The notes under the pieces: model-generated
Databases searched by the model: none
Told to the model about the DNA's origin: nothing
Seen by the model: the letters and a program-made list of their open reading frames with translations, nothing else
In this document: one piece after another, positions 12,134 to 32,715 of the stretch
Position numbering within the stretch: the first letter of the stretch is position 1
How the letters are laid out: each line of letters begins with the position of its first letter
Source: a virus
Taxonomy: Duplodnaviria; Caudoviricetes
IMG/VR virus record: IMGVR_UViG_3300028591_000146
Span: 1-64,000 of that record
Strand: one strand, 5' to 3'
Length of the DNA: 64,000 bases
Made by a program: the position numbers and the translations under genes

Positions 12134-12592
12134 ATGTTCGAAAACACAAGAGCGTGGTCAACGGTTTGTGATTGTCTTGAAATCGCCAACAGAGCAATTC
12201 GTTCAATCGCATTACAGCAGCCGTTCTATCCACAGCAGGGCTACGGATATCCGGAAGTACCGCCACAGCATGCATCACGTCGTGATGCACAGTATGGTGC
12301 ACCTGTATATCCACAGCAGAATCAGTATACTGCGTATCCGAACCCGCAGTATCCACCACAGTTTCCTCAGGGTTATGCAACACCGTATATCCCAGGAAAG
12401 ACAAACCCCAATTATGGTATCAGTGGTGCTGCAGCGTATGCTCAGCCTCAGCAGGGACATGCTAACTATGACGCATACTTCCATCCCATGACATACCAGC
12501 AGCAGGCACCTCCTGATCCGAATATAACTTGCTCATTCGGATATGGTGCAGTACCAATCAAGAACAACAACGGAGGACAGTATGGCTATTGA
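12134..12592 (+). CDS. Low-complexity Q/P/Y/G-rich protein
   Basis: 152 aa, SD AGGAGGAG; YPQQ/YPNPQYPPQ repeats. Confidence 0.8.
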   Translation: MFENTRAWSTVCDCLEIANRAIRSIALQQPFYPQQGYGYPEVPPQHASRRDAQYGAPVYPQQNQYTAYPNPQYPPQFPQGYATPYIPGKTNPNYGISGAAAYAQPQQGHANYDAYFHPMTYQQQAPPDPNITCSFGYGAVPIKNNNGGQYGY

Positions 12593-12947
12593 GTTTAAAG
12601 AATACTGTGATAATTTCGCAGTGGTTGAGAATGTTACTATCACAGATGATAGAACTATTCCGGATGAATATAAGAAGACTGTTGAGAAGGTAATTGATGA
12701 TCTCAAGCTGAGAGTCGATGACTTTGATGAGGTATCAATCAATTATATCCAGCTCACTCTCGATGCAGTTAAGGATTTTGAGACAGCTCTCAGTCATACC
12801 AAGGGAAATATTCCTGATGGTATTATGAATGTTCTCGCTATTGAGTTATACGGTAAAGAGTTCAATGAGCTTGATGATGATAAGAAGTCGATAATAATAA
12901 CCGTATCGACATACATCTGTGTAGCAAGAAATAAGAAACTGCAATAA
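12582..12947 (+). CDS. Hypothetical acidic protein
   Basis: ORF 12543..12947; SD GGAGG favours ATG 12582. Confidence 0.75.
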   Translation: MAIEFKEYCDNFAVVENVTITDDRTIPDEYKKTVEKVIDDLKLRVDDFDEVSINYIQLTLDAVKDFETALSHTKGNIPDGIMNVLAIELYGKEFNELDDDKKSIIITVSTYICVARNKKLQ

Positions 12948-12954
12948 GCTTAAT

Positions 12955-13076
12955 GGGGAATGCATTTAAGTCGATAAATTTAATAAAGGAGGATATACTG
13001 GCAAGATGCATTCCCGACATTATCCGAACGACGACGGATACTATCGTCAGATAGATTGTCAGTAAAATGTACCATG
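12955..13076 (+). ncRNA. Structured cis-acting leader RNA, copy 1 (pseudoknot enclosing SD)
   Basis: P1 GGGAATGCATTT/AGATGCATTCCC; P2 TACTGGCAA/TTGTCAGTA; hairpins TATCCG/CGGATA and CTATC/GATAG; same topology as 31138..31264. Confidence 0.65.
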
Positions 13077-13712
13077 AATAAAGGTAACATTAAAATGGAT
13101 GAACTTAAGAAAGGCTGGGTAACAGCAGCCGAGGTTCATGCACATCTCGAGAGTGTTCTCAAGTGTCCAATCAAGAGTGACTTCAAGGTGATCACAGGAG
13201 CAAACCCTTTTGACGTTTATGTCAGAATGCGTATCGCAATCGAGGATAAGTATGCACTCGACACAACAGGTGCAAACAGCTATGTTGATCAGGTTCTGGC
13301 TGCTAACTGCAGTGAGCTTCCCCTGAGAGATTCTATCTATAAGAAGCTCCTGAAGTTCATGTATCCTCAGGATGTAAATGATCTTCGTCAGTTCATCCTC
13401 AATCAGAATCCACAGAAGCTTCTCAACAAGGGTATCTATGGTGCGAATCTTAAGGAACTTCTCGACAACGCAACACCTCACCACAGTGCAAAGTATTCAG
13501 AGATCGCTGTATATGTAATGCCTGAGGCAATCATCAGAGACATGGTTGTTGATCCCGCAGATGATGACGATGTTGACTTCTTCATCGATCTCGTTACAAA
13601 TGATCCTACAAACGGCGTACGCTGGAGAGCTTGCACAGTTAAGTATGTTGCTAAGACAATCATGACAACACATGATGATGCAACAATCCAGAAGATTTAC
13701 GAATCTCTTTAA
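13074..13712 (+). CDS. Hypothetical protein behind structured leader
   Basis: ORF 13056..13712; in-frame ATG at 13074 in conserved TACCATG context; codon usage resembles abundant structural genes. Confidence 0.75.
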   Translation: MNKGNIKMDELKKGWVTAAEVHAHLESVLKCPIKSDFKVITGANPFDVYVRMRIAIEDKYALDTTGANSYVDQVLAANCSELPLRDSIYKKLLKFMYPQDVNDLRQFILNQNPQKLLNKGIYGANLKELLDNATPHHSAKYSEIAVYVMPEAIIRDMVVDPADDDDVDFFIDLVTNDPTNGVRWRACTVKYVAKTIMTTHDDATIQKIYESL

Positions 13713-13726
13713 TTAAAATATGGAAG

Positions 13727-13750
13727 TGCACGGGATATATATCCCGTGTA
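13727..13750 (+). terminator. Stem-loop terminator
   Basis: TGCACGGGAT-ATAT-ATCCCGTGTA. Confidence 0.6.
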
Positions 13751-13773
13751 TCTTCTATTATGGAGGTGATAAA

Positions 13774-14862
13774 ATGATAGTTGAAATTAGTCAGATGATA
13801 ACTATGATAGAGGATTTCATAAGAGATCAGTCTCGTTATGTTATGGATGTTGGGGGTTGTGTTGGCACAGGTATTTTCAGAATATGTATTGAGACTGTAG
13901 CTCAGTTCTATGATTTCTCTAGAATACTCGTCATTGAAGGTTGCCAAGATTTCGTTGAGATGCAAAGACATCGTTTACCGAATCAGATTTTCTATGCTGA
14001 AAGCGTGACGAGTGAATTGGATGATACATTCTACAAACTGGATGATCCTAACACTCCTAAGTTTATGCGTAGTGATTTAACAGTCACAACAAATCCAAAC
14101 GACTTGAATATGTTTGATATCATCATCATTAATGATGCTCATCTTATACCGAGTGAAACTTTAAAGATGATTCGTAATAGATTCTATGCGAAGATAATCA
14201 ATATTGTAGATCCGTTTGATTATAAGAGTGAACAGTGGATGAGTGCTCCTACAGTAATTGATTCATTGAATAAATTATCTCTCATTCAAGCATATGCCAG
14301 AAGAGTATATAAGATTGAGACTCGTGCAATTGATAAGAATGTTTCATGTGGATTCAAGGATGTTGGTAATATATCAATACGAAGTGTTGGTAAACGTGAT
14401 AAACATCAGTATGTTACTCCATCGAAAGATATTATCGATTTAATCAATAAGCGTCGTAAACAAGACTTGAGACGTGGACAGAAGATAATCTGCACGAATA
14501 AATACATCGATGTATTGAAGGGTGAAGATGGTTTTGATCATGTATTCACAAATCATTCGATGGGAATCCTTCAATCTAATAGACAGCTTCTCAATAGTGG
14601 TAGTTATAATGTCAGACTTCATAACAGTATTCACAATGTCAATACTCAGTTGACATTTGATGCTGAACATGCTTATCACTTTGATACTACATGTATACCT
14701 GCTGATATTATATCTATTGATGAGATGAGACATCATAAGTTTAATTCGATTGTATTAGTATTACCCGACGACAAAGGTATAACCCTTCGCGAGATGTATA
14801 GTGTACTCAGATGCACAAACAATCTCACAGTGGGACATCTTAAAATGAAAGCGGGTAATTGA
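13774..14862 (+). CDS. Degenerate RecD/Dda-like (SF1B) helicase-fold protein, probably catalytically inactive
   Basis: Walker A-like GCVGTGIF (no Lys), Walker B-like IIIINDA, motif III-like IVDPFD, GQKIICTNK; SD GGAGGTG before ATG 13774. Confidence 0.5.
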   Translation: MIVEISQMITMIEDFIRDQSRYVMDVGGCVGTGIFRICIETVAQFYDFSRILVIEGCQDFVEMQRHRLPNQIFYAESVTSELDDTFYKLDDPNTPKFMRSDLTVTTNPNDLNMFDIIIINDAHLIPSETLKMIRNRFYAKIINIVDPFDYKSEQWMSAPTVIDSLNKLSLIQAYARRVYKIETRAIDKNVSCGFKDVGNISIRSVGKRDKHQYVTPSKDIIDLINKRRKQDLRRGQKIICTNKYIDVLKGEDGFDHVFTNHSMGILQSNRQLLNSGSYNVRLHNSIHNVNTQLTFDAEHAYHFDTTCIPADIISIDEMRHHKFNSIVLVLPDDKGITLREMYSVLRCTNNLTVGHLKMKAGN

Positions 14863-14863
14863 C

Positions 14864-15460
14864 ATGTTCTCTATAAAGAAATTAATGAATCGAAAAACTG
14901 ATGAAAAACAATGCATCTCATATAAGCATCTGGTATTCGACATTCGTAATTGTTCTGAAACCACATTAGCCTCATTCATTGAGCATACTGATGTTCAATC
15001 GATGAAAGCTGCTGATAAGTTAAGTGAATTGGTTGATCACATTGTTGCATCAATTGATTTATATGCTGAGAATAAATTTGCAGTTCCATCAACAATCCTC
15101 GGATTGAGAAATGGAGCTGTAAAGCTCAGTGATGGAACAAGAATGTTCATAGCTGCGTTGTTTGATAATCTCTCCAATCGTGAGTGTGAAATCAATGAAC
15201 TCATGCAGAGATTCATCAAAGCAACAGATCTTATCATGACAGCTAGAAAGATAATAATGCATTCAATAGAACTTGAATTCAGAATGGTTCAGTATGATGT
15301 CGATATCATCGAGCGTTACTATCAACAACAAAAGCATCCTAATAAAGACATAATATTCAATGTGTCATTTAAACAACCTTCACATATTCTAAAAACTCAA
15401 AAGGAGGACAAGCCTAATGGGTCAGTTAAACGAAACGGAACTCAGAGCAATGGGATATGA
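14864..15460 (+). CDS. Hypothetical protein
   Basis: 198 aa ORF in operon. Confidence 0.7.
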   Translation: MFSIKKLMNRKTDEKQCISYKHLVFDIRNCSETTLASFIEHTDVQSMKAADKLSELVDHIVASIDLYAENKFAVPSTILGLRNGAVKLSDGTRMFIAALFDNLSNRECEINELMQRFIKATDLIMTARKIIMHSIELEFRMVQYDVDIIERYYQQQKHPNKDIIFNVSFKQPSHILKTQKEDKPNGSVKRNGTQSNGI

Positions 15461-17219
15461 ACAGAAGTTCGATTACTCCCAATTCAGTCATGACAATGAC
15501 ATCAATGTTATCCCGAAGAAAGATTTCAAACGTCTCATTCGTGATACATTTAAAACAATCACAACTGTTGTCAAAGAAACATACGGACCGTATGGATCTA
15601 CATATACACTCAATGAGTTGAATCAGACTTCTTCAACAAAGGATGGATACAATTCATTTGAAGCTATTCACTTCTCCCATCAGTATAAGCAGATGGTTAA
15701 ACTCACAATCGGAAAGATATGTTCGCGTGTAAATGAAGTAGTAGGTGATGGCACAACATCATGCTTACTTCTTGCAGACAAGATATTCGATTCGATAGAT
15801 GAGACATTGAAGACCCCTGAGGATGAGAGACTTATCAATGACATTCTTACAGATGTACAGAAGTTCTTCAATGACAGTTTGGCTTTCGCAACTGATTATG
15901 ATTATATCAAACCTTTGAATCATGAATCTCTTGAGAGTGTATTGATGATGGCTTCCAATCATGACAAGAAACTCCGCGATACTCTTATCGATGCTCTTGA
16001 TGTAAAGTATGCTTCAGATGGATCAGTTACATCAATCAACAACATCAATGTTCAGACAAGAATCGATCAGAGTGTTTCAACAAAGTATGAGATACTCAAG
16101 ATGCCTGGTGACTATCGTGTCGAAGTTGGTATGTTCCCGAATGACATTGCTTTGTTACTCGAGAAACAGAACGTTGTGATTATTGCATATGATCATAACT
16201 TCAGTGAAGCTGATTTCACAAGCTTCATCACTACATATAAGGATAAGTATTGTCTGAATAATAAAGCTCATAAGATTCTGAATACGGATGGTACATTATC
16301 TGATGAGAGTGAAGCTAGCAATATTCCCCGTCCGATTATTCTTTTATGTGCAACGAATTTCAATCAGCGTGTAATCGATGATTACATGGTAACCTTCCTC
16401 AAGAGTGAAGCTATCTATAATCGTTCACATAACATCATACCTGTAACAGTCAAAGGTTCATACGCACGTAATGAGATACGTGATCTTGCTGCAGTTGCTG
16501 GAGTTCCATGTCACACTGTATATACACCAACAATCAAGTTTGAAGACTTTGATAAGTTCACTACTGTCACAGTATTCAACAATGATTGTCTCTGCATGTA
16601 TGATGTAAAACCTCCGGCTAATTATATTGAAGCTCTCAATATTGATATGCAGAATGAGGAAACTTCCAGTCGTCGTATACAGATGAAGAAGCGTATTGAT
16701 GCTTTGATGATGACTAAGTCAGACACTACTATCAATCTCACAGTTCCTAACAGTCTTGAACAGAAGATGCTTGAGGATAAGATTGATGACTGTGTTTCTA
16801 TCATCGAATCCGCATTCGAACATGGATGCGTTCCGAACTTATTCAAGTTCGCTCATACAATTCTGAAGATGTATAAGACAACAGACGACCGTACGGCAAC
16901 TGTTATTAATTCTATAATCAAATCTATTGAAGGAATCTTTACTGATGTTTGGATTTCCAAATATGGTGATGATGAGAATCTTATAACAGAACGCACAAAC
17001 AGAATGACATCATTCTATGAATCATATGACGTTTCATATGATATAATAAATGATGACTTCATACCACTCGAGAAACTCTCTACATCAGTACAATATGATG
17101 TCGAGGTTGTATGTGCAACTCTCGAAATCGTTAAATTCTTACTCACATCCAGAGGTCTTATATTTGATTCATGCTTACTGCAGATGCATGGAGATAATGG
17201 ACGTTATGTACCTACATGA
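15417..17219 (+). CDS. GroEL-like phage chaperonin
   Basis: TYGPYG, TKDG, VGDGTTS ATP-binding motif, KIDD; 600 aa. Confidence 0.85.
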   Translation: MGQLNETELRAMGYEQKFDYSQFSHDNDINVIPKKDFKRLIRDTFKTITTVVKETYGPYGSTYTLNELNQTSSTKDGYNSFEAIHFSHQYKQMVKLTIGKICSRVNEVVGDGTTSCLLLADKIFDSIDETLKTPEDERLINDILTDVQKFFNDSLAFATDYDYIKPLNHESLESVLMMASNHDKKLRDTLIDALDVKYASDGSVTSINNINVQTRIDQSVSTKYEILKMPGDYRVEVGMFPNDIALLLEKQNVVIIAYDHNFSEADFTSFITTYKDKYCLNNKAHKILNTDGTLSDESEASNIPRPIILLCATNFNQRVIDDYMVTFLKSEAIYNRSHNIIPVTVKGSYARNEIRDLAAVAGVPCHTVYTPTIKFEDFDKFTTVTVFNNDCLCMYDVKPPANYIEALNIDMQNEETSSRRIQMKKRIDALMMTKSDTTINLTVPNSLEQKMLEDKIDDCVSIIESAFEHGCVPNLFKFAHTILKMYKTTDDRTATVINSIIKSIEGIFTDVWISKYGDDENLITERTNRMTSFYESYDVSYDIINDDFIPLEKLSTSVQYDVEVVCATLEIVKFLLTSRGLIFDSCLLQMHGDNGRYVPT

Positions 17220-17228
17220 TATAGTTGT

Positions 17229-17254
17229 TCAACCCCGGGAATTCCCGGGGTTGA
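17229..17254. terminator. Palindromic stem-loop
   Basis: TCAACCCCGGG-AATT-CCCGGGGTTGA. Confidence 0.65.
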
Positions 17255-17315
17255 TTAATTAAAGTATCACATTAACAGTTCATTACATGAATCAAAAATG
17301 AAGGATGTGATTGGA

Positions 17316-19830
17316 ATGAAACAACTCAAACAATCGATATATAAAAATATATTATCGGTTATTACACAGCACCAGTTCAGGACTTCACAGAACATGATTC
17401 TGTTTTCAAGAATCCTGACTGCATATCCAACGAACAAAGGAAGTTACTACTTAACAACTCAACGTGTTATCTCGTATCTTGAACGTGGAGTCAGAGATAT
17501 ATCGTTGATGATTGAAACGATGAAAGTTGAGGGTGAAGATGAAGAGATATATAATACTCTTGCAGACATTGTAAGAAACCCAACCATTACTACAATTCCG
17601 GAAGTGGTTCATCTTACAAAGATATTATCTACATATCTGAAGTATGCAAACATTCTGAAAGTAAAGAACACATTCATCACATCGATGGATATGATTGATG
17701 ATGAGAATGAGGAGAATCTCTCTGAGTCAGTTGAAAGAGTTCACGAGTTTGCTAAGCAGATATGTGATGCATATGATGTAGCAAACGTATCAGTATCACA
17801 ACATCAATTTGATACTGGACAACCGGAATTAATGGAAAACGTTGTTGCTCATGCTCAGGATTCTACAAACATATCAAATGTTGTCGTTACTGGAGTCAGA
17901 GCACTCAACACATTACTTTCACCAGGTTATGTAAATGGAGCTTTGTATGTATATGCAGCTCTTCCAGCTAACTATAAATCTGGTATCCTACTTGAATCAC
18001 ATATCGATGTTCTTCGTTATAATGATCATCTGAAAGAATCGTTAAATGGAAAACGCCCAGTATCCATTTACATATCAATGGAGAACAACATGTCTCAGAC
18101 TATCAAACGTCTGTGGAGTATTCTTTATCCGAATACAGATATGAGATCATATACAGCTTCAGAAGCAACAAAGATGTTCAATACAGCTTTGAATTCACAT
18201 GGATTCCGTTCTGTAATATTGTATTATGGATATCGAGAGAAATCTACTAAAGATATCCGTGATATCATCAATACATTCAATACTGATAAAGAACAGGTTG
18301 TTGCAGTATTCTTTGATTATATAAAGCGAGTTCGTCCAGGTCGCACAGATGCTTCAACTCTCAGTAGTGAAAAGTCTGAGTTAAATGTTATCATGAACGA
18401 ATTCAAAAGTATTGCTGTTGAATTGGATATTCCATTCATAACAGCTCATCAGTTAAACCGTTCAGGAGCTCAAGCACTTGATGATGCATATCGTAATCGT
18501 GCTAATGGAAATGTACGTTCTGACATATTACTTGGTAGAAGTAATATTTCTGTTGCGTAAACAAAACTGCGCCACATACAAGTGATTGTATGTGCAAACC
18601 TATTTAACTGCTGGGATCACGTAACGTAATGTCGGGATGACATAACAGTGTATCAGCCACCAAATTAAATTTCGGAATTATATCAATATGAAAGGAGTGA
18701 TGATTATTAAAGATAATACTTCTGAGATTATTTATCAATATCTAAAGACTGTGAAATGGAAACCAGTTGTATATGCTGATATAAAACCCGGAATGTATGA
18801 GGTTTCTAATTATGGATTCATACGAAATATTCATAGTGGAAATATCATGTCAATATGCTTATCTGAAAAAGGATATGCGATGGTTGAATTGATGTCAGTC
18901 TCTGGTAGAGCAAAAACAAAGAAACTTCATCGAATAGTTGCAAAACATTTCGTTGATGGTGAAACTTCTGAAAAATGTGAAGTTGATCATCTTGATGGTA
19001 ATAAGATGAATAATAGAGCTTCTAATCTTGAATGGGTTACACATTTGGAAAACATTCGCAGAGCTTATAAACACAATCTCATACCTATCAAGAAATGTGA
19101 AGACCATCCACATTCAATATTAACCAATAAAGAAGTTCATGAAATATGTAAGACTCTTGTTAAATTTGATGGTGATTGTAAGAAAACTCTTGTTGAGTTA
19201 CGAGATCATATAAATTGTACACTAAGTCTTATTCATGGTATAAAATATAAGAATTGCTATAAGTCAATATCTGATTTATACTTTAATAAAAATTCATTTC
19301 CGAAATTTAAAAGGTTCAACGACTATCGAAACTAACTCAATCATACTAACACGTCGGGAGACGTCTTGATTGGAATAAGGATGTCATATCCGAAAGGAGT
19401 AGAGTAGCGCCAAAGCGATGTGTGGTTCTGGTTGAGAGTAATAATCTCATAATTCCAGATTAAAGCGAAATGGTAGGGTTCTTGTTAAAGAACGTGATAT
19501 AGTCTCACCGTCTGTTATAATGACAGAGAAGTTCATAAGAGAACTGCATGACGTAGCGAATCATGTGAAGATTTTGGGGAGATTCTTGAAGTTGCAGACT
19601 GGTTAGGAATCATAAATATTGATATGGTTGGTGATGAAAAATATCTTATGATAAAAGCTGCAAAGCAACGTGAGAAAGATCAAGCAGATCAATCAACATG
19701 TATTGCTTATAGACAACCATTCCTCACACCAACATCATTTGCGTTGAGAACTGATATAACTGAAAATGTTCCTCTGGGTCAGCCGTTATATACAGAACTT
19801 CAGCAACTCAATTACGCTAGAGCTCAATAA
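17316..19830 (+). CDS. DnaB-like replicative helicase, spliced: join(17316..18558,19577..19830), 498 aa
   Basis: Walker A-like ALPANYKS, YISMEN, VFFDYI, ITAHQLNR; splicing gives SNISVA-W-EILEVAD (DnaB S..IEQDAD motif) in frame. Confidence 0.85.
18559..19576 (+). mobile_element. Group I intron in DnaB-like gene
   Basis: P1 exon GCGU with IGS GCGC (U.G at splice site); core elements AACTGCTGGGA, TTCAACGACTA, GATATAGTC; terminal G 19576; removal restores frame. Confidence 0.85.
18688..19335 (+). CDS. Intron-encoded HNH homing endonuclease (NUMOD4-HNH type)
   Basis: YEVSNYG, LHRIVAKHF, VDHLDGNKMNNRASNLEW; ORF reads into intron core (FNDYR). Confidence 0.9.
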   Translation: MKGVMIIKDNTSEIIYQYLKTVKWKPVVYADIKPGMYEVSNYGFIRNIHSGNIMSICLSEKGYAMVELMSVSGRAKTKKLHRIVAKHFVDGETSEKCEVDHLDGNKMNNRASNLEWVTHLENIRRAYKHNLIPIKKCEDHPHSILTNKEVHEICKTLVKFDGDCKKTLVELRDHINCTLSLIHGIKYKNCYKSISDLYFNKNSFPKFKRFNDYRN

Positions 19831-19836
19831 TCCAAT

Positions 19837-19858
19837 CAAGCTTGGTAGGGCAAGCTTG
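19837..19858. terminator. Stem-loop after helicase
   Basis: CAAGCTTG-GTAGGG-CAAGCTTG. Confidence 0.4.
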
Positions 19859-19874
19859 TAAAAATATATAAACG

Positions 19875-19894
19875 ATATTTATATTGTTAAAATG
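19875..19894 (+). promoter_or_regulatory. Early-type promoter
   Basis: ATATTTATATTGTTAAAATG. Confidence 0.5.
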
Positions 19895-19944
19895 GATAAC
19901 AGAAGGATACTGTTATCTGAAATCAGAAATAGGAGGAAAATACA

Positions 19945-20562
19945 ATGATTAGATCTTTACAGACCAAGATCTGGTATGCGGATGATATCATCCCATACGA
20001 TCAGCTGATTACCACTTCATATCCGGTTCAGGTAATTCAGGGAGATCAGCTGATAGGTTTGAAAATCAGTCTCGCTGACCATGTCAGAATGCCAGCGGCA
20101 GAAAGAATCGTACGTCTCGAACAGATTCTTCCTAACATTCTTGCAGGTACAAGATGCATGTTAAGAGAGACACCAATCACAGCCCCATTCGGCTATTATC
20201 TGTTAACCATGCCGGTTCCTAAGGATCAGCTCCGTGGAATAATAAACGAGGTTATCAGAGTTTTGACAATACTTGAACGTGACTTCGGAATTACAGTCAC
20301 AAAAGAGTATGAGATCAATGTATCGGGACAGTGTTCACCGATGGAGACTGAGTACAAACTTGCAAGATTCGATGTTCCATCAGAATATATCGGAATGCTT
20401 GTACACCAGCCTGGATCTCCGTATTCAATCGGATATGTTGAACGTATCAATGAAGGATATATCACAGTGAGAACGCTTTGGTCATATCCTGTTAATACTA
20501 ACATAATCTCAGATCTCGAGCATATCAAGATGCTTGCATACTTGATTGCTGGAATATTTTAA
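19945..20562 (+). CDS. Hypothetical protein
   Basis: 205 aa, SD AGGAGG. Confidence 0.8.
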   Translation: MIRSLQTKIWYADDIIPYDQLITTSYPVQVIQGDQLIGLKISLADHVRMPAAERIVRLEQILPNILAGTRCMLRETPITAPFGYYLLTMPVPKDQLRGIINEVIRVLTILERDFGITVTKEYEINVSGQCSPMETEYKLARFDVPSEYIGMLVHQPGSPYSIGYVERINEGYITVRTLWSYPVNTNIISDLEHIKMLAYLIAGIF

Positions 20563-20576
20563 AGGAGGATTTTAAA

Positions 20577-21272
20577 ATGAGTAACGAATTTCCAAATCCT
20601 GATGCTCCTGAATTAGGTAAACAGCAGTTTATCAAATATCAGTATCAGGAAACACCAATGGCAACACAGGGATACTACTATGGTGGTGGAGCTGTAGATC
20701 CATTCGCACAGATGCAGTATCAGCAGTATCAGCCTCAGGCTGTAGAGAGTAGAAGATTCATGGGTCCTGACATATCACAGATGCAGCAGAGTCAGCAGCA
20801 GTTCTTCCCTCAGCAGCCTGTTAACACACAGATACTCAACAGATTTATCGAACAGGATAGACAGGTTCCTCAGTATCAGCAGCCTGCAGTTCCTATGAAT
20901 CAGCAGTATCCACAGCCATCTCCGGTAAGTCCTTGGGCACAGCTTACAGCTCCTGTCGGTCCTATGAACAACAACAATGCTTTCATGCAGCCATTCTATG
21001 ATGAAGCATATCTCTCAAGACCATATGGAAATTATGCAGATGCATCTCAGGGTCTGATTGTTCCACCTATCAACAAGAAGGAAATGTGGGATCCAGCATA
21101 TGCAACTCCTGTTGTATATGATAGCCCTCAGATTAACTGGAGCAATCCTAACCCACAGCAGGCTTACTGTTATACAACACCACAACCTCAGCAGTATGTA
21201 TCACCTTTCAAAGGTGCTTCACAGGAACAGCCTGGTTCATGGTATGCTCGTGCACAGGAGAACTGGAAGTAA
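20577..21272 (+). CDS. Low-complexity Q/P/Y-rich (prion-like) protein
   Basis: 231 aa, SD AAGGAGG; QMQYQQYQPQ, QQSQQQFFPQQP. Confidence 0.8.
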   Translation: MSNEFPNPDAPELGKQQFIKYQYQETPMATQGYYYGGGAVDPFAQMQYQQYQPQAVESRRFMGPDISQMQQSQQQFFPQQPVNTQILNRFIEQDRQVPQYQQPAVPMNQQYPQPSPVSPWAQLTAPVGPMNNNNAFMQPFYDEAYLSRPYGNYADASQGLIVPPINKKEMWDPAYATPVVYDSPQINWSNPNPQQAYCYTTPQPQQYVSPFKGASQEQPGSWYARAQENWK

Positions 21273-21281
21273 TGATTGATG

Positions 21282-21305
21282 TATGCGGGGATATATCCCC
21301 GCATA
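21282..21305. terminator. Palindromic stem-loop
   Basis: TATGCGGGG-ATATAT-CCCCGCATA. Confidence 0.6.
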
Positions 21306-21333
21306 TCATTTTATGTTAAGGAGACATGTATTC

Positions 21334-22116
21334 ATGCTTTATACATATAGATCAAGACTGAACCAACTACCACTTGATTTGAAGTGTGAATTAGGTGAAC
21401 TTGTATATCAAAAAGGAATGCTACCAGAATCTAGAAAGAGTAAAGCTGTTGAATTATTCACAAAGTATAAAGTAGAGTTCATAGAAGTAGGAACTGGTAC
21501 TAATCGGTTCATTGTTAAATATGACGATTATGCTTTGAAGATTGCTCTTGATAATGATGGTGTGGCAGACAATAAACAAGAATATGCAATGTGTGATATT
21601 CTCAAACATGGAATGTCATATTCACACGAGATATCTAAAGGTGGAAATCTATTAACAGCTGAGTATTGCCCAGCGATGACTTCATATCAGGAATTATATA
21701 ATCATCGAGATGAGATAAAAGCGATTCTTGCAGATTGGAGTTCTAGATGTATCCTTGGTGACGTAGGTATCAGTCGAATAAATTATGCGAATTGGGGATT
21801 ACGTAATGGAGTGGAGCCCGTGTGTATAGATTATGCGTACGTATTTCCATCAACTACGAAGATATTCAAATGTATTTGCGGTGCATCCGATATTGCTCAT
21901 ACAGATGAAACCTATACAGTGTATAAATGTTTGTCTTGTGGAAGAATAATCGAAGATTCAACACTCAGACAGAGAATAACTCCAGAAGCAAGAATGAGAA
22001 TGCTTGCGAACGCAACTCTCGGTTCTATCGAGATGACAGAAAAGACTAAGACTGTTGAGATTCCTGATATGTATATCAAGAAACCAGTTCTTAGTGATGA
22101 CCCAGACTTTGTTTAA
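21334..22116 (+). CDS. Protein-kinase-like protein with C-terminal Zn ribbon
   Basis: Gly loop GTGTNR, ALKIA (Lys), helix C Glu in NKQE, catalytic D...N in GDVGISRINYANWG, IDY; CIC...CLSC; SD AAGGAG before ATG 21334. Confidence 0.7.
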   Translation: MLYTYRSRLNQLPLDLKCELGELVYQKGMLPESRKSKAVELFTKYKVEFIEVGTGTNRFIVKYDDYALKIALDNDGVADNKQEYAMCDILKHGMSYSHEISKGGNLLTAEYCPAMTSYQELYNHRDEIKAILADWSSRCILGDVGISRINYANWGLRNGVEPVCIDYAYVFPSTTKIFKCICGASDIAHTDETYTVYKCLSCGRIIEDSTLRQRITPEARMRMLANATLGSIEMTEKTKTVEIPDMYIKKPVLSDDPDFV

Positions 22117-22136
22117 TATTTAAGGAGGTACTTGTT

Positions 22137-22565
22137 ATGTACTATAAGAAGATCATTCGTCGTTGTGCTCCAGAAACAAATGAAGCACCTGTAACACCCC
22201 AGCCACAGGTAGTTACCGTTGAACCAACATATTCATTGACTGAAGAACAGGGTAAGAGATTACTCAACTTCTTTGAGTATCTAAAGACGGAATGCTTCAC
22301 TGATATTCCTTATAATAAGGATATTGATATACATTTCCTGAGAATGATTCCTAAGGGAGTATATAATCATTTCGAAAGTGTCGAAGCTAAGAATGGTCCG
22401 TTAACTGCAAATCCGATCACACTTCTGTATGGATTCTGTCTGAATGATATCAACATGTATCCGAACTTCCTTGAGAGATATCTTGAGATAAATCTGGAAG
22501 AACATGCAGATTTCACAGACTGGATTACAAACAATATCTCGTATGTTGAAAAGGATGATGAATAA
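22137..22565 (+). CDS. Hypothetical protein
   Basis: 142 aa, SD AAGGAGG. Confidence 0.8.
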   Translation: MYYKKIIRRCAPETNEAPVTPQPQVVTVEPTYSLTEEQGKRLLNFFEYLKTECFTDIPYNKDIDIHFLRMIPKGVYNHFESVEAKNGPLTANPITLLYGFCLNDINMYPNFLERYLEINLEEHADFTDWITNNISYVEKDDE

Positions 22566-23483
22566 ATGTTATTGATGTCGCTGAGATGTTATATCAATTG
22601 CATGGTACCGACAACCGAGAAAGATGTATTGTTAAAATCTCAGTATTATATTCTTGACGTATCGAAAGGAAGTTCATATGATACAAGTGATAGTATCAGT
22701 TGGACTGACTATGGGGATATCGTAAAGAATGCACCGCCACAAAATAACAACTATAGAATCTCATATGTGAATGTAATGAATCCAGCACCGCATACTGGAA
22801 ATGAACAGTATATCAGAACTCCTGGTGGACCATCGCTTATAAACAAACAGGCTGGTTATCTCAAGCATCTCATGAACTCTGACACTATGATCAAAGTGTA
22901 TAATGAGTTATTTAATACGAATGAGACGATTGATTATCCGGTAATATTGCTGATGTTCTCTGAGCATTATATTGTTGAATATGGACACATCATTGCTAAT
23001 TATCTATCGAATGTATTCGGTGAAGATGTTACGTTCTTGGATCCGACACTGAGACCAAATGTTCCTGGTAATAGGAACGGATTCTATCCAGGCAACAAAG
23101 AAATGGGAAACAAGAACCGATTGATGTGTAGAAATAAAAAGCTCATGAATGATATGCGTTTCATGCTGGATTCTACATCACGTGAAAGCACTGAATCGAA
23201 TATAATTAACCAGCTCACATGTTATACAGTACCTGATATGATCAATCTGTATAATACAATATATCCTGATAAACCATTACATGCGGGATATTATACTAAG
23301 CAAGACATGATCGATATCATAATTGGTAGTATCACGAGAGATATGCACTTCTCTACATCTACAGATGAAGAATATCGAAATGAAGTCGCTGAGTATGAGC
23401 AAGAGCTTACTGACTGGGAGCAGTTACAAGAAGATTTCAGAACTGAAATGCTCAATGAAGCAGTTAATTATGCAGGGCTGTAA
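22566..23483 (+). CDS. Hypothetical protein
   Basis: 305 aa, abuts upstream stop. Confidence 0.75.
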   Translation: MLLMSLRCYINCMVPTTEKDVLLKSQYYILDVSKGSSYDTSDSISWTDYGDIVKNAPPQNNNYRISYVNVMNPAPHTGNEQYIRTPGGPSLINKQAGYLKHLMNSDTMIKVYNELFNTNETIDYPVILLMFSEHYIVEYGHIIANYLSNVFGEDVTFLDPTLRPNVPGNRNGFYPGNKEMGNKNRLMCRNKKLMNDMRFMLDSTSRESTESNIINQLTCYTVPDMINLYNTIYPDKPLHAGYYTKQDMIDIIIGSITRDMHFSTSTDEEYRNEVAEYEQELTDWEQLQEDFRTEMLNEAVNYAGL

Positions 23484-23505
23484 AGCCCTGCTAATCTTCT
23501 TTTTT
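23472..23505 (+). terminator. Intrinsic terminator
   Basis: GCAGGGC-TGTAAA-GCCCTGC then T-rich tail. Confidence 0.65.
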
Positions 23506-23544
23506 GTTCACGATTTGATAATCTTATAGAAAGGATTGACCCTT

Positions 23545-26439
23545 ATGGATATAAATAAAGCTGTGAACCCAATGTCTGAATATTTATTGAAATTACAGAT
23601 GATTGTATCAAATACAGAATTCAAGAATAAAGCAGAAGCTAAACTTTATGAGACTCCTGAATCTAAACTCAGAGGTGAAGCTTATGTAAATGCTGTAAAC
23701 CGCACCGACTCATTTACTTCATATACATATCCTCGTTCATTAATGATTTCTGTAATGACAAATCTCAAATATTCAGAAGATAAAATCAAACGTTATCTTG
23801 ATGCTCCAGTTCTCATGCCTCAGTTATGCAAGGACACATTACAAGCAATAGCGCGTAAGAATTACATCGATACGTATAAAGAATCAAATAGGTATTATTT
23901 GGAACTTACTGGACAACCTGCTGAGGGTGATGATATCGTACTCGTACCGGATGAGTTCTATGACATCTATGCAGGTGATAACTCATTACAACGCAACATG
24001 CCACTTCATGAAATGCCTTATAAGTATCAAGAGTTGTTCATTAACTCTGATTACTATAAGGAGACCTTGGCAAAGTATCCTAATGTCACATACATTAGAT
24101 ACCTTGGAAGTTATTCAATACCGTTGGAGATTTCTCGTCCTGCAAAGGATGGAGCAATCATGAAAATCAATACTGGAAAACTCTCAACATACCACAAGAC
24201 ATTCGGTAATGTTACAGTTGAATCCGATTTGATTCATGTATTTGTTAATACATATAATCAGACTCGTGATTATGTATACAACACGCTTAGAGGTAACTTC
24301 TCATCTATTTATGAGAACTATGATTCATTTATCAGATTCCTCACAATATATCTTTCAATAGGTAATACTCTGAATGAGTTATCTAGAAAAGCATCATCCA
24401 TGATGTACATGAATAACGTTGCTGCTAACAACTATTTCGAATTGTACGGATTACCATCATCATTGATGGAAGGAACAAACATTATCAAGTTTCTCAAAAA
24501 GTTCCGTCTGATACTTATGGACAAAGGAACCAATACAGTGTATAGAGTGAAAGATCTCATCGGTTATGAGAGTACGGATATCTATTCATTGATAATGGTT
24601 AAACAACAGAAGTTTGAAGATGGAGTTCCTGTATACAAGGATGGAAAACCGGTAACCAGAATTGTATTCCGTCGTTCAGGTGTTGCTGATGAGAATACTT
24701 CATACTTCAAATTCCGTGAAGAACATAAAGAATATTCTATTGAAGAAATCACATCTGGAGATCCTCGTTGGTGGAATGGTAAAGATGTTGAACAGATGAT
24801 CAATGAAATGAATTATACTTTATCAAATTCAAAGTATATCCAGTTATCAACTCACATGTCAGCTGAAGATATATTCTGGCAGGTATCTATATTACTTAGA
24901 GGATTACTCGACAGAAAACAAGAAACTGCATATACCAAGATCAGTATCAATTATAATGTAGATGGGTCATCCAGTATCAGTGTATTCGATGCTGTAAATG
25001 TATTGATCATTCTGATGGATTGGATGTTGATTGATGTTCAAGGACGTTCAATCAAGGGTGAACTTTATGTACCTAATGGAAACTATCTTGGTCAACCTGC
25101 TTGCATTGATATGTTATTCAATGGATTGAATGATGATGGTTCTCCTAAGGAACTCAAACCAGGACTTCCATTCAAGATAACTTCATTCAATTTCGATATT
25201 AAATCTGATTACATTTTCTATGCTAAGATGGATAAGATGGAATACATCGAACCCACTAAGTTCAAACCAATGTTGGAAAAGGTTATTCAGATGCAAAACA
25301 ACAATGTTGGTGAAGTATTAATGACTGATGCAAAGAACATCTGGACATATCTCAGAGATAAGCTTCTCAATGCAACAACCATTCGTGAGTACAGACAAGT
25401 CACTGATGTATATTCGCATGTATTCTTAGTTGATCCTATGAGACGTTGGTATACTGATGATGACTATGATCCGGATGATATAATTTGTAAAGAATTCCAA
25501 TTAGGTCAATCTGAATACATGGGATTCAAAAACTTCTTCAAACCAAACGTTGCTGATTTCTATGTGTACTTCGAAGAACTCTCATATCCAATATCGCTTT
25601 ACAATGTTCTGAATAAAGATGTTACTAAACTTAAGATACAAGATACATATCCATTTACAAATGATGACTTCTTGGATAAATTCTATAGAACTTTAGAAGA
25701 TATCGATTTACAAGATGTCAGAACATCAGATATACTTTCAACTACAATCCGTCTTAAGTATAAAGAGATTATCTCATCTAAAGTTATACTTGATACTGGT
25801 AATAGCGACTATGGTCCAACAACATTCGAAGCATTACTCTTCAGATCAAATCCTGTACTGTATGGAAGATTGCTTGAAACCAAGAAAGACAGTAATGCGA
25901 TGGCAATGTTAATTCGTTCTATAATTAAAGGACTTGAATCATATACGAACAGTTCACTTGGTGGATTACAGTTCAAGACTCTTGGAGAAGAATATTTCAA
26001 AACTCTGAAAGAAGTCATTGGTTATTTCAAATCATATATGGTTGAATTCACCAAGGACGAATTCGTGTATATCTTTGGTGGTATATTTGATAACGGTGGA
26101 AACTCTGATATGCTGAAACTTTTCGATGAAGTTGTTCATGCTCGTGTTAAAATGACTCCAAAAGACTCATTAGCATTGTTTGATGTATCCAAATGGAGAA
26201 CTAAACTCAAAATGGCTGATAACAATGTTGACATGATGCATGATGAAGCATTGTTCAGACTCAGAGGTACATATGCTAAGATCAAAACTGTCGGCTATGA
26301 GATATGGTATGATGATGGTACATGGATAACAACAACTCCGTTACGTGAACTGACGAATGATTCTATCATCGTAGCTAACGTAGTACCTGCTGGAAACACA
26401 TATAGAATCATAATCAATAAAGAAAATATAATTTCGTGA
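23545..26439 (+). CDS. Large virion protein, putative baseplate wedge subunit
   Basis: About 964 aa; YKESNRYYLELTGQP and KGTN motifs resemble jumbo-phage baseplate proteins as I recall them; late-type promoter at 23509. Confidence 0.45.
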   Translation: MDINKAVNPMSEYLLKLQMIVSNTEFKNKAEAKLYETPESKLRGEAYVNAVNRTDSFTSYTYPRSLMISVMTNLKYSEDKIKRYLDAPVLMPQLCKDTLQAIARKNYIDTYKESNRYYLELTGQPAEGDDIVLVPDEFYDIYAGDNSLQRNMPLHEMPYKYQELFINSDYYKETLAKYPNVTYIRYLGSYSIPLEISRPAKDGAIMKINTGKLSTYHKTFGNVTVESDLIHVFVNTYNQTRDYVYNTLRGNFSSIYENYDSFIRFLTIYLSIGNTLNELSRKASSMMYMNNVAANNYFELYGLPSSLMEGTNIIKFLKKFRLILMDKGTNTVYRVKDLIGYESTDIYSLIMVKQQKFEDGVPVYKDGKPVTRIVFRRSGVADENTSYFKFREEHKEYSIEEITSGDPRWWNGKDVEQMINEMNYTLSNSKYIQLSTHMSAEDIFWQVSILLRGLLDRKQETAYTKISINYNVDGSSSISVFDAVNVLIILMDWMLIDVQGRSIKGELYVPNGNYLGQPACIDMLFNGLNDDGSPKELKPGLPFKITSFNFDIKSDYIFYAKMDKMEYIEPTKFKPMLEKVIQMQNNNVGEVLMTDAKNIWTYLRDKLLNATTIREYRQVTDVYSHVFLVDPMRRWYTDDDYDPDDIICKEFQLGQSEYMGFKNFFKPNVADFYVYFEELSYPISLYNVLNKDVTKLKIQDTYPFTNDDFLDKFYRTLEDIDLQDVRTSDILSTTIRLKYKEIISSKVILDTGNSDYGPTTFEALLFRSNPVLYGRLLETKKDSNAMAMLIRSIIKGLESYTNSSLGGLQFKTLGEEYFKTLKEVIGYFKSYMVEFTKDEFVYIFGGIFDNGGNSDMLKLFDEVVHARVKMTPKDSLALFDVSKWRTKLKMADNNVDMMHDEALFRLRGTYAKIKTVGYEIWYDDGTWITTTPLRELTNDSIIVANVVPAGNTYRIIINKENIIS

Positions 26440-26533
26440 TTACGGTACAACGTAATAATGAAGGTTGAATCATAAGATTCGTGATATGGTTCGGAAACAT
26501 ATCATCCTTCGTCTTCCTCTTTCTGATAAATTA

Positions 26534-26556
26534 TTGGCGGGCGAAATGCCCGCCAA
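26534..26556 (+). terminator. Stem-loop terminator
   Basis: TTGGCGGGC-GAAAT-GCCCGCCAA. Confidence 0.7.
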
Positions 26557-26587
26557 CTAATTTGTTTCTTTGATATTATTGGAACCG

Positions 26588-26608
26588 ATATTTATATGAT
26601 TTAAATGT
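26588..26608 (+). promoter_or_regulatory. Early-type promoter
   Basis: ATATTTATATGATTTAAATGT identical to 7936..7956. Confidence 0.6.
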
Positions 26609-26627
26609 ATTCTATAAGGAGGCTATT

Positions 26628-29138
26628 ATGAAAATCAAAAGTATTAGATTAATTAATTTCAGTAGTATTTATGCTTGTAGGAATCTTAAAGAAGTCTACT
26701 ATGAATTTGATAATACTGATAAGACGATCAATCAGATCTGTGGACCTAATAGAAGTGGTAAGACTGTTCTTATTCAACAACTGCATCCATTCTCGTCAAT
26801 AAATCTCAGTGGCGATGAACGTTCTGATTTACAATTGATAATTCCTGGTGAGACTGGTGTCAAAGAAATAACATATGAAGTTGGTGGTAAAGAATATCAT
26901 ATCAATCATACATATAAACCCAGTGGCAAATCTCATTCAGTTATATCATCCATTGTATGTGATGGTAAAGAACTCAATAGCAGTGGTGGAGTTAATACGT
27001 TCAATTCAGTAATTGAGAAAGTGTTTGGATTGAATAGATATGCATTCCAGTTTACTATTAATGGAACTCAATTGAATTCTCTCAGTACAATGAATGCTAC
27101 TCAACGAAAGACATTACTTAATAAAGCTCTCGGTGTTGATATTTATGATAAGATTCATAAACTGTCAACTGCAGACCATCGATATATCAGCAAGACCATT
27201 TCATCATTGAATAATACTAAAGAATTTATATTAAAGAAGTATGGTTCATATGAGAATCTTCAGATGATGTTAAGTGAGAAACAGAAAGAATACACAGCAT
27301 TGATTAACTCGATGAGTAGTGTTAAATCCAATATGGATAGATTATTTGGAATGATCACATCCATAAAGAATCAAGATCCATACAATGAATTACAGCGACT
27401 CAATATGATACTCGAAGATGTCAATGAAGTTAGTAAACGCATCGGTTCATATGATGATTCTACATATACCAGATTATCTGAAGAGAGTATAGAGTTGAAT
27501 AAAAAGCTTGAACAGTTGAAGACTAAGTATCATGATCTGCTTGTTGAGATGGATAAGTTTGATGAAAAGAAAGATGATATTGTAGCATCAATGGCTAAAG
27601 CTAAAAGGATGAAAGATGATTACGATGATATGAAACGAGTGAAAGAAAGACTCGAAGAACAGATAAAATCTATCAAGGTTAATAAGATCATATCATTAGC
27701 TCCAGACTTCTATAGAGCAGCTTTGAATCTCACTCAGACAATCAATTCCATGGCAAGTGAAATAGTGACAACTCTTAATGATGATCTATTGGATATGGTT
27801 GTCAGGATGGTTCTTGATAATGTTGACATTCCTGCATTCCTGATACGAGAAGGAGCTGTATTGAATGACGGTGAAAAAGAAAGAAATGCAATGAATCGTC
27901 TCAATGTGATATTGTCATCAGTACCTGGTGAGTATCCAAAATGTAATCATGAGAATTGTATATACAAGAACACATATGACAAATTCCAAGTATACTTCAA
28001 ATCATATCAATCTGCGACCAAAAGTAAATTGACTATTGATGATTTGGAGAATATTGATCATTGTTGGAAGAATATAACATCAATCAAAAGACTCATCAAT
28101 ACTGAGTATCCGGATGAATTGAAGAATACATTTAATATTGAAACCATTATGCTTAATATCAAATCAAGTAAATGGGGAGTAGACTTTGATTATGTGAAAT
28201 CATTATATGAAGCTGCTGTTGACAATGAGCAACGTCGTAAGTTAATTGAACAACTTCAGAATGTTGAGAATAATATAAAGATGATTGAATCTGTTATGAT
28301 AGATGATACAGACCCAACTCAAGCTATCAATGATATCAACAAACATCTTGATGAATTAAGTGATAAACGTGAAATGATGTTGAGAGAAAAGGTTAAACTT
28401 GAAGAAGCTATATTGGCTAATGATAAGAATCGAGCATTGATATCACATCTGAATGGAGTAAATGTTGGAGAGGTTCATGCTAAGATAGATAAGCTTACTG
28501 AGACTATTAAAACATTAGATCAACTTCAGCAAACTCATGATGAACATTATAGAACATATCATGATTATCTATCTCAACAATCAGAATTATCAATTCAACT
28601 TGATTCATTAAAGAAAGATGATTCACACTGTAAGATGACAATGAATGAACTGATGACCAATAAAGAACAGGATACTCAATGTCGTTTGATAGCAGATGCT
28701 ACATCATCAACAAAAGGTCTTCCAGTTGTAATGATTCACAATACATTGGATGAATCTGTAAAGATTGCAAATCATCTATTGGATGTTATTTATGATGGAT
28801 CTGTTAAACTTAATGATCCAGAAGTATCTGAGTCTACATTAAACATTCCATTCACACATGATCTTATTCAATCCAATGATATCAGATATGGATCTCAATC
28901 AGAAGCTACTATATTTGCATTGGTATTGTCATTAGCATTGTCTACCCAATTGACTAACTACAATATCATTCTGATAGATGAGATCGATGCATATCTTGAT
29001 CATGAGTTCAAAGATAAGTTCATATCAATGCTTGATGAAGTATCTAAACTTCTTCATATAGATCAACTATTCGTTATATCACATAACATCAATACCGATC
29101 AATATTCGAATATCATAAATAAGATATCATTAATCTAA
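26628..29138 (+). CDS. SbcC/Rad50-like (T4 gp46-like) ABC ATPase
   Basis: Walker A GPNRSGKT, long coiled coil with central CNHENC, signature-like GSQSE, Walker B IILIDEID, H-loop ISH. Confidence 0.85.
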   Translation: MKIKSIRLINFSSIYACRNLKEVYYEFDNTDKTINQICGPNRSGKTVLIQQLHPFSSINLSGDERSDLQLIIPGETGVKEITYEVGGKEYHINHTYKPSGKSHSVISSIVCDGKELNSSGGVNTFNSVIEKVFGLNRYAFQFTINGTQLNSLSTMNATQRKTLLNKALGVDIYDKIHKLSTADHRYISKTISSLNNTKEFILKKYGSYENLQMMLSEKQKEYTALINSMSSVKSNMDRLFGMITSIKNQDPYNELQRLNMILEDVNEVSKRIGSYDDSTYTRLSEESIELNKKLEQLKTKYHDLLVEMDKFDEKKDDIVASMAKAKRMKDDYDDMKRVKERLEEQIKSIKVNKIISLAPDFYRAALNLTQTINSMASEIVTTLNDDLLDMVVRMVLDNVDIPAFLIREGAVLNDGEKERNAMNRLNVILSSVPGEYPKCNHENCIYKNTYDKFQVYFKSYQSATKSKLTIDDLENIDHCWKNITSIKRLINTEYPDELKNTFNIETIMLNIKSSKWGVDFDYVKSLYEAAVDNEQRRKLIEQLQNVENNIKMIESVMIDDTDPTQAINDINKHLDELSDKREMMLREKVKLEEAILANDKNRALISHLNGVNVGEVHAKIDKLTETIKTLDQLQQTHDEHYRTYHDYLSQQSELSIQLDSLKKDDSHCKMTMNELMTNKEQDTQCRLIADATSSTKGLPVVMIHNTLDESVKIANHLLDVIYDGSVKLNDPEVSESTLNIPFTHDLIQSNDIRYGSQSEATIFALVLSLALSTQLTNYNIILIDEIDAYLDHEFKDKFISMLDEVSKLLHIDQLFVISHNINTDQYSNIINKISLI

Positions 29139-29152
29139 AATTCTAATATAGC

Positions 29153-29173
29153 ATATTTATATGATTAAAGTGT
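29153..29173 (+). promoter_or_regulatory. Early-type promoter for tubulin operon
   Basis: ATATTTATATGATTAAAGTGT. Confidence 0.55.
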
Positions 29174-29226
29174 AATAACGGTAGGGTACCGTTTATTATA
29201 AATACATTCAGAAAGAGGTAATCTAA

Positions 29227-29919: not shown

Positions 29920-29931
29920 ACATTATGAATA

Positions 29932-29952
29932 GGGAGTCTCATAGAGACTCCC
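29932..29952. terminator. Stem-loop
   Basis: GGGAGTCTC-ATA-GAGACTCCC. Confidence 0.55.
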
Positions 29953-29986
29953 GATATAAATTATATTACGAAAGGACTTAATTAAA

Positions 29987-31042: not shown

Positions 31043-31054
31043 TGTATAAAATCC

Positions 31055-31086
31055 GTCCGGATTGTAGCCCTACCTATAATCCGGAC
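31055..31086. terminator. Long stem-loop after tubulin gene
   Basis: GTCCGGATTGTAG/CTATAATCCGGAC. Confidence 0.55.
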
Positions 31087-31137
31087 TTGACATATACATA
31101 TAATTATTCTGGTAACACGGTACAGCTGTGTATCCAA

Positions 31138-32149: not shown

Positions 32150-32163
32150 GGAGGACGAAAATA

Positions 32164-32709: not shown

Positions 32710-32715
32710 TGATTT

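Follow-up and report, generated by a model that had tools for sequence, protein, structure and literature searches.

A conserved leader RNA with a predicted pseudoknot and a candidate split ribosome-binding site in uncultured rumen jumbo phages

Two structured leaders upstream of unrelated genes

The DNA analyzed here (the window) covers 64 kb from the start of a 94-kb fragment of an uncultured jumbo phage, for which CheckV gives a completeness of 35%. Two genes on its plus strand are preceded by copies of the same leader. Gene A (13074–13712, 212 amino acids) begins with an ATG at 13074 downstream of copy 1, and gene B (31262–32149, 295 amino acids) begins with an ATG at 31262 downstream of copy 2. 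The encoded proteins are unrelated to each other, and searches of Pfam and PHROG produced no match for either of them. A structure model for the gene B protein is confident (pLDDT 90) and all-helical, and its comparison with PDB and BFVD yielded no meaningful match, while the model for the gene A protein is poor (pLDDT 59).

The start codons of both genes agree with conserved N-termini, and an alignment of homologues shows that the gene A protein is conserved from its first methionine. These starts are further fixed by in-frame stop codons located just upstream. Specifically, a TAG at 31250–31252 in copy 2 bars any upstream start for gene B, and a TAA lies three codons before the ATG in a gene A orthologue from another phage (locus L021, see below).

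Copy 1 occupies the interval between the stop codon of the upstream gene (12947) and gene A. A contig from an RNA library continues without interruption from this upstream gene through the gene A leader, indicating that copy 1 is intercistronic. Gene B resides directly downstream of a gene for a tubulin/FtsZ-family GTPase (29987–31042; Pfam Tubulin, 4e-9; PHROG ‘tubulin PhuZ’, 1.6e-10) in every phage of the clade and also in distant relatives that lack the leader. The order at copy 2 is tubulin gene, hairpin, conserved promoter-like block, leader and gene B.

The hairpin upstream of the gene B leader falls within 31044–31137 and has a stem that differs between phages and a loop core, CCCTAC, that is similar among them. 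It is adjoined by the block CTTGACATATACATATAATTAT, which occurs only once in the window and is almost identical in all four gene B loci compared (the window and, at ~1780–1870, L006, L010 and L012). A second variable hairpin comes after this block, and the distant orthologous loci L007 and L008 retain ACATACATAATT. The region of the first hairpin and the block has the appearance of a terminator followed by a promoter specific to the phage, and the −35/−10 spacing of the block does not fit sigma-70.

Both leader copies (12950–13076 and 31134–31264) carry, in order, the 5′ strand of a helix P1, the tetranucleotide GUCG, an A-rich loop that includes AAAGGAGGAUA, the 5′ strand of a helix P2, the 3′ strand of P1, two hairpins, the 3′ strand of P2 and 8 to 10 nucleotides that lead to the AUG. 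All of these features are on the plus strand. In copy 1, P1 is formed by 12956–12967 and 13004–13015, which make 12 base pairs with no mismatches. The GUCG at 12970–12973, which would serve as the 5′ strand of a third helix (P3), is complementary to a CGAC at 13029–13032. It is followed by an A/U-rich, single-stranded loop of 22 nucleotides (12974–12995), in which an extended Shine-Dalgarno (SD) sequence, AAAGGAGG, is present at 12985–12992 with AUA immediately after it. The seven base pairs of P2 join UACUGGC (12996–13002) to GUCAGUA (13058–13064). Hairpin 1 (13021–13040) has six base pairs and an eight-nucleotide loop that holds the CGAC, and hairpin 2 (13041–13054) has five base pairs closed by the loop GUCA. 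An unpaired spacer of nine nucleotides then extends to the AUG of gene A (13065–13076).

Copy 2 repeats this arrangement. Its P1 pairs 31138–31149 with 31190–31201 through 12 base pairs, two of which are G-U, and its GUCG (31155–31158) is complementary to CGAC at 31213–31216. The SD loop again has 22 nucleotides (31159–31180), with AAAGGAGG at 31170–31177 followed by AUA, and P2 is made by UACUGAC (31181–31187) and GUCAGUA (31245–31251). Hairpin 1 (31204–31224) has six base pairs and the loop UGUCGACAG, hairpin 2 (31227–31242) has five base pairs and the loop UUCCUC, and a spacer of ten nucleotides precedes the AUG of gene B (31252–31264). Because the G-U pairs of P1 would become C-A mismatches on the other strand, the functional strand is the mRNA sense strand. 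The predicted topology is that of an H-type pseudoknot, wherein the 5′ strand of P1, the SD loop, the 5′ strand of P2, one to three nucleotides, the 3′ strand of P1, the two hairpins and the 3′ strand of P2 follow one another, with an additional contact between a loop and a linker. A first-pass annotation of the window had described both copies and this layout, and its coordinates are borne out.

The position of the SD sequences is unusual for this phage. A proximal SD motif precedes 43 of the 50 genes in the window (86%), and 15 of these motifs are AAGGAGG, whereas the 22 nucleotides that precede the AUG codons of genes A and B are free of any SD motif. The 19-mer AATAAAGGAGGATATACTG that surrounds the leader SD is found exactly twice in the window, compared with 0.05 occurrences expected by chance. 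On the two strands of the window there are 26 AGGAGG sites, 20 of which are located 3–11 nucleotides before a start codon. Judged by coordinates, an intergenic AGGAGG with no start codon 3–15 nucleotides downstream occurs only in the two leaders. Likewise, neither leader has an ATG, GTG or TTG that opens a reading frame of at least 50 amino acids within 3–15 nucleotides after AGGAGG. We read the other exceptions as intragenic or as part of a hairpin between convergent genes. In the latter region (32710–32744), AGGAGG is present on both strands, at 32718 (+) and 32738 (−), and the AGGAGG/CCTCCT hairpin that we read there probably terminates transcription in both directions, as opposed to being an orphan ribosome-binding site.

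Six copies of a covarying fold

Four more distinct copies of the leader were found in related uncultured phages, three before gene B orthologues and one before a gene A orthologue, to give a total of six distinct sequences from at least four phages. Exact-pattern scans of IMG/VR with four patterns returned a single related contig (L004), and a structure-aware pattern located the orthologous copy on it (L004/L006). Another pattern match in IMG/VR, L003, is inside a coding region and was rejected as a chance occurrence. An alignment of 16 gene B homologues led to the further loci L007, L008 and L010–L012. The element is present at L012, where the gene B protein has 78% identity, and at L010 and L011 (57–58%). 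In contrast, the distant orthologues at L007 and L008 (35–36% identity) have no element and carry an ordinary AAGGAGGAnnnnnnnATG site instead. A scan of species-representative genomes added L019, whose element is the same in sequence as those of L010 and L011 and which belongs to a Spirochaetaceae-labelled metagenome-assembled genome (MAG) with contigs of the L010-type phage. Finally, the covariance model R1 uncovered the copy at L021, which is in the same MAG as L019 and lies directly before the gene A orthologue.

The gene A and gene B positions are thus both retained in a phage with a gene B identity of only ~58%, which implies that the leader duplication is old and has been maintained. A covariance-model search had been recommended in the first-pass annotation, and it proved productive beyond the two original copies. 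A model built exclusively from the four gene B copies recovers copy 1 with an E value of 1.6e-8 and the gene A copy of the other phage, L021, with E values of 1.9e-5 and 4e-7. A search of G000–G003 with model R1 revealed no further copy, and three matches with E values of 0.6–1.5 were treated as noise. Searches of IMG/VR for loci with the single proteins of genes A and B gave nothing, as did a gene A alignment there, and tblastn with both proteins against 50,697 GenBank phages found no match. The searches for protein homologues involved 21 protein clusters, and the alignment of the element consists of six sequences from one clade. The known spread of the leader is narrow, being confined to one clade of uncultured rumen jumbo phages.

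DNA nearly identical to that of the phage is present in gut metagenomes from sheep, goat and cattle. A DNA run from goat covers all 30 bins over positions 12400–32399 of the window. Contigs from a sheep-rumen RNA library cover the same interval in patches (23 of 30 bins), taking in both leaders and genes A and B, and none extends over 26407–29074, which holds an SbcC-like gene. This patchy coverage, when set against that of the DNA run, suggests that the library represents real RNA and that phage transcription takes place in the rumen. Since the RNA runs consist of assembled contigs, they provide no 5′ ends, strand or expression levels. The MAG noted above (3.6 Mb, labelled ‘uncultured Spirochaetaceae bacterium’) includes two or more contigs that belong to the jumbo-phage clade, corresponding to the gene B locus L019 and the gene A locus L021/L022. 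Their presence probably reflects faulty binning and not the identity of the host.

All five helices can pair in each of the six sequences, the sole exception being a terminal A·A in P2 of L010. Covariation over the six sequences is extensive in P1, where 9 of the 11 modelled pairs change on both sides, and in hairpin 1, where 4 of 5 do so. The combined value of 13 of 16 pairs was reached by none of 500 shuffles. When P1, hairpin 1 and the invariant P3 are considered together, 99% of cells are paired, compared with 26–52% when the partners are slid. Hairpin 2 has a different stem sequence in every copy and always retains four to six base pairs. These results uphold the proposal, made initially from two copies, that P1 and the hairpins differ in sequence yet preserve pairing. 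The counts for P1 and hairpin 1 were made on a model-fitted alignment and those for P2 and P3 on an end-anchored alignment. In MAFFT alignments, hairpin 2 is out of register, as is the 3′ strand of P2 for L021; the pairs of hairpin 2 were counted after dividing each copy into segments by length, a procedure that gives back the sequences.

P2 reads UACUGRC/GUCAGUA in five copies and AGCUGGC/GUCAGCU in L021, with six or seven base pairs and predicted energies of −7 to −9 kcal/mol. Its variation comprises two adjacent compensatory pairs, both specific to L021, plus G-U/A-U changes. Covariation support for P2 is modest, since it derives from one lineage and the observed value is reached by 28 of 500 shuffles. 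For P3, the complementarity between GUCG and CGAC that the first-pass annotation had pointed out is preserved in six of six copies. Both partners are invariant and hence display no covariation, so we infer this pairing from complementarity. The hairpin 1 loop of copy 1 keeps CGAC but not GUCGA, which indicates that the conserved feature is complementarity to the upstream GUCG and not a repeated motif. In the predicted pseudoknot, P2 and P3 would form simultaneously with P1, although P1 and P2 could instead represent alternative states.

Outside of the helices, the only invariant nucleotides are the SD, the AUA that follows it and the A after GUCG. The segment AAAGGAGGAUA does not vary, while the A/U-rich stretch on its 5′ side does. 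Junctions J1–J5 and the loop of hairpin 2 are variable in both length and sequence, and the leader copies contain no conserved anti-SD and no U-tract. Two pairings noticed at first did not withstand comparison among copies: the anti-SD-like loop of hairpin 2 (UUCCUC or CUCC) occurs in only three of the six, and UAAAUU:AAUUUA pairing is not conserved.

Comparisons with Rfam, which had also been advised, revealed no known family. Rfam 15 searched at gathering scores gave no matches in the whole window. When permissive filters and a cutoff of E≤10 were applied to the 3-kb loci around both copies, six weak matches appeared, none of which overlaps the element. We conclude that the leader is a real, conserved and uncatalogued structured RNA family.

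A possible split ribosome-binding site and its alternatives

The spacing of the conserved parts changes little among the copies. The SD loop has 22–23 nucleotides in all six copies, exactly three nucleotides (AUA) separate GGAGG from P2, and 8–10 nucleotides separate P2 from the AUG. The part that P2 would loop out measures 65–75 nucleotides. As the first-pass annotation had emphasized, a perfect SD sequence thus occurs with no ATG near it and with the start far downstream, at a linear distance of 76–88 nucleotides. With P2 closed this distance would become 11–13 nucleotides (3 plus 8–10), a geometry that agrees with the earlier suggestion that folding juxtaposes the SD and the AUG. In nested folding, the nucleotides of the SD 8-mer are unpaired with a mean probability of 0.62–0.97.

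These characteristics are compatible with a structure-dependent split ribosome-binding site of the type known from T4 genes 38 and 25, in this case with a pseudoknotted insert of 65–75 nucleotides, and we judge the chances that the leader works in this way to be about even. The cis-acting leader in the sense strand of the mRNA would form a compact pseudoknotted domain, in which P1 closes a large loop that displays the extended SD AAAGGAGG within an unpaired, A/U-rich stretch of 22–23 nucleotides. P2, by beginning precisely three nucleotides past the SD and pairing 8–10 nucleotides before the AUG, would loop out the 3′ strand of P1 and the two hairpins, and the GUCG:CGAC loop contact probably locks the fold. 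Because the SD–AUG distance would shrink from 76–88 to 11–13 nucleotides, a 30S subunit bound to the distal SD could place the AUG in the P site, with the folded domain remaining outside the subunit on the platform side. We propose that the distal SD serves the AUG codons of genes A and B in this manner, in which case translation of both genes would depend on correct folding, whether constitutively or under the control of a factor. The direction of the effect that the fold has on translation is likewise one that we infer.

In sequence and predicted structure, the leader resembles the split SD/AUG class, which is defined by function and not by homology. The SD is too distant, no proximal SD is present and a predicted closing helix would restore a working spacing. 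The effective spacing of 11–13 nucleotides is at the long end of the working range, as exemplified by T4 gene 25 at 11 nucleotides, and the looped-out domain is about four times the size of any proven case. Moreover, juxtaposition could be achieved by a plain hairpin, so the additional P1, P3 and two hairpins hint at some other or additional function. A bolder form of the proposal is that the fold represents a new class of ribosome-docking RNA knot, a counterpart in bacterial viruses of the IRES. Such an RNA would present the extended SD, seat itself on the 30S platform and deliver a start codon ~80 nucleotides away, with P2 closure perhaps gated by a phage factor and a small set of unrelated genes forming a translational regulon. 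This form is speculative, and we consider it unlikely.

The main rival of the split site, one absent from the first-pass annotation, is a 5′ stabilizer of the STAB-SD type. Under this rather unlikely alternative, the distal SD would hold a 30S subunit in the stable folded leader and thereby keep RNase J1 of a Firmicute host from degrading the mRNA in the 5′-to-3′ direction, with translation of genes A and B starting independently of an SD. SD-like sequences that bind 30S subunits and stabilize an mRNA without directing initiation are known (PMC4113751), and a phage-derived polypurine 5′ stabilizer has been described (PMC3997798). The phage has strong SD sequences of the Firmicutes type, the leader SD is exposed in a loop beside stable helices, and a stabilizing role would account for an orphan SD in a 5′ leader without a usable start codon. 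However, cry3A, the STAB-SD example, has its own ribosome-binding site at the start codon, whereas genes A and B have no proximal SD in a phage where most genes possess one. A stabilizer also leaves unexplained why P2 ties the 3′ flank of the SD to the 5′ flank of the AUG through linkers fixed at 3 and 8–10 nucleotides, and why P2 carries compensatory changes. The stabilizing and split-site roles are not mutually exclusive.

Another unlikely possibility is that the domain is a factor-controlled operator or switch that co-regulates the two unrelated genes and whose ligand would be a protein of the phage or the host, a small molecule or an ion. The 30S subunit might be trapped on the SD, as with S15 on rpsO, or the RNA might alternate between an OFF state, in which GUCG pairs with UGRC of the P2 5′ strand, and an ON state with GUCG:CGAC formed and P2 closed. 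The same elaborate fold, more complex than juxtaposition requires, is found upstream of two unrelated genes, both of which retain it in a diverged phage, and no variation is seen in the short motifs GUCG(A), CGAC, CUGRC and GUCAG. There is also a precedent in thrS, which joins a split site to repressor binding at the intervening hairpin (PMC3936740). Nested minimum-free-energy folding predicts the local GUCG:UGRC helix in five of six copies (within 12970–13002 of copy 1 and 31155–31187 of copy 2), and this helix is incompatible with P2 as well as with the pairing of GUCG and CGAC. It may correspond to an OFF state or arise transiently during folding. However, the helix has only four base pairs, one or two of them wobbles, and its partners are all invariant and provide no covariation. 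Furthermore, the SD takes part in no conserved sequestering pairing, and neither a partner nor a pocket is seen.

The first-pass annotation had listed a riboswitch or a ribozyme among its possibilities, and the leader copies offer no positive evidence for either. In contrast to riboswitches with their ligand pockets, the leader has hardly any conservation beyond the helices apart from the SD; with invariance limited there to the SD, AUA and a single A, no obvious pocket is evident. No Rfam riboswitch is matched even at E≤10.

It is very improbable that the SD serves a leader mini-ORF beginning at a CUG within the P2 5′ strand, whose translation into a peptide of 3–18 codons would remodel P1 and P2 before re-initiation at the AUG. 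This CUG is located five nucleotides after GGAGG in all six copies, which is an ideal spacing, but its conservation is accounted for by its place in P2. The frames that open there have 18, 13, 6, 6, 3 and 3 codons, encode unrelated peptides and stop at different positions, and ~30–70 nucleotides of structured RNA would separate the stop from the AUG. In addition, CUG start codons are very rare in Firmicutes.

Most improbable of all is that the insert is removed or skipped, by RNA splicing or processing or by hopping as in T4 gene 60, to restore the contiguous site AAGGAGGAUAUACCAUG. The first-pass annotation had noted that a collapse between two TAC triplets yields a textbook site, ‘AAGGAGGATATACCATG’, and this is true of copies 1 and 2, but the repeat is absent from three of the six copies, namely L006 (TTATCATG), L010 (AAC after GGATA) and L021 (ACAATATG). 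Contigs from the sheep-rumen RNA library span 12407–13223 and 30992–31472 with no gaps and with no joint reported at either leader, although contigs may hide rare forms or include DNA. An insert of 65–75 nucleotides is too small for a group I or group II intron, and no ribozyme family is matched. Bypassing in gene 60 requires a nascent peptide and a coding context.

If, as the split-site reading holds, the distal SD truly serves these AUG codons, initiation would be shown to allow a 30S subunit to bear a pseudoknot of several helices where the mRNA exit channel opens. Gene callers presuppose an uninterrupted ribosome-binding site and would register starts of this kind as having no SD. As a portable module that is found at two unrelated genes, the leader could also be useful as a folding-dependent translation part.

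Relation to known leader RNAs and split initiation sites

The leader had been called undescribed. This holds for the RNA family, which is new, but the kind of mechanism proposed here is already known from the split SD/AUG sites of T4 genes 38 and 25 (PMC3014915). Other systems resemble the leader less closely. The paper on the malK-I RNA motif (Rfam RF03069; Weinberg et al. 2017, PMC5737381) states only that its structure lies near an SD. The phage leader gives no Rfam match to RF03069 even at E≤10, and the host genes and taxa differ. The T4 gene 60 bypass is similar in that the ribosome skips tens of nucleotides of folded mRNA. However, that event takes place in elongation between matched codons with the aid of a nascent-peptide signal, whereas the gap in the phage leader precedes the start codon and its TAC triplets are not conserved.

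The operator of E. coli thrS demonstrates that a structured mRNA domain can be tolerated at or next to a ribosome-binding site, with the ribosome accommodating a long hairpin within the split site (PMC3936740). The thrS split separates a single-stranded enhancer, located upstream, from a unit composed of SD and AUG and does not divide the SD from the AUG. Both thrS and rpsO are autoregulated by a known protein, a respect in which the phage leader differs. The rpsO/S15 pseudoknot, which includes the ribosome-binding region, reportedly docks on the platform of the 30S subunit (Marzi and colleagues, 2007).

The STAB-SD of Bacillus thuringiensis cry3A (Agaisse and Lereclus 1996; PMC4113751) shares with the phage leader a perfect SD-like AAAGGAGG that is far from the start codon in a 5′ leader, a setting of the Firmicutes type and an expected ability to bind 30S subunits. 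It differs in that cry3A has a separate, genuine ribosome-binding site and no conserved fold that connects the STAB-SD to the AUG, whereas the phage leader lacks a proximal SD and has a covarying helix.

The closest likeness is to T4 genes 38 and 25. There, intervening structure reduces the SD–AUG distance from 22 to 5 nucleotides and from 27 to 11 nucleotides, respectively, and destabilizing mutations lower translation (PMC3014915; Nivinskas et al. 1999 and Malys and Nivinskas 2009, reviewed there). In both T4 and the rumen phages the SD is too far from the AUG and an intervening RNA structure brings it, or in the leader would bring it, into range (76–88 to 11–13 nucleotides in the latter). 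The setting is a phage in each case, the gene A copy is intercistronic like the 26–25 junction, and the structures occur in close relatives but not in distant ones. The T4 sites and the rumen phage leader share no sequence homology. Moreover, the T4 inserts are single small hairpins, whereas the rumen phage leader loops out 65–75 nucleotides in a predicted fold that also uses sequence upstream of the SD (the P1 5′ strand and GUCG) and so would place the SD inside a pseudoknot, and the module is reused at two unrelated genes. Should the distal SD indeed serve the start codons of genes A and B, the leader would hold by far the largest structured insert between an SD and its AUG, at 65–75 nucleotides compared with ~16–17 nucleotides in T4.
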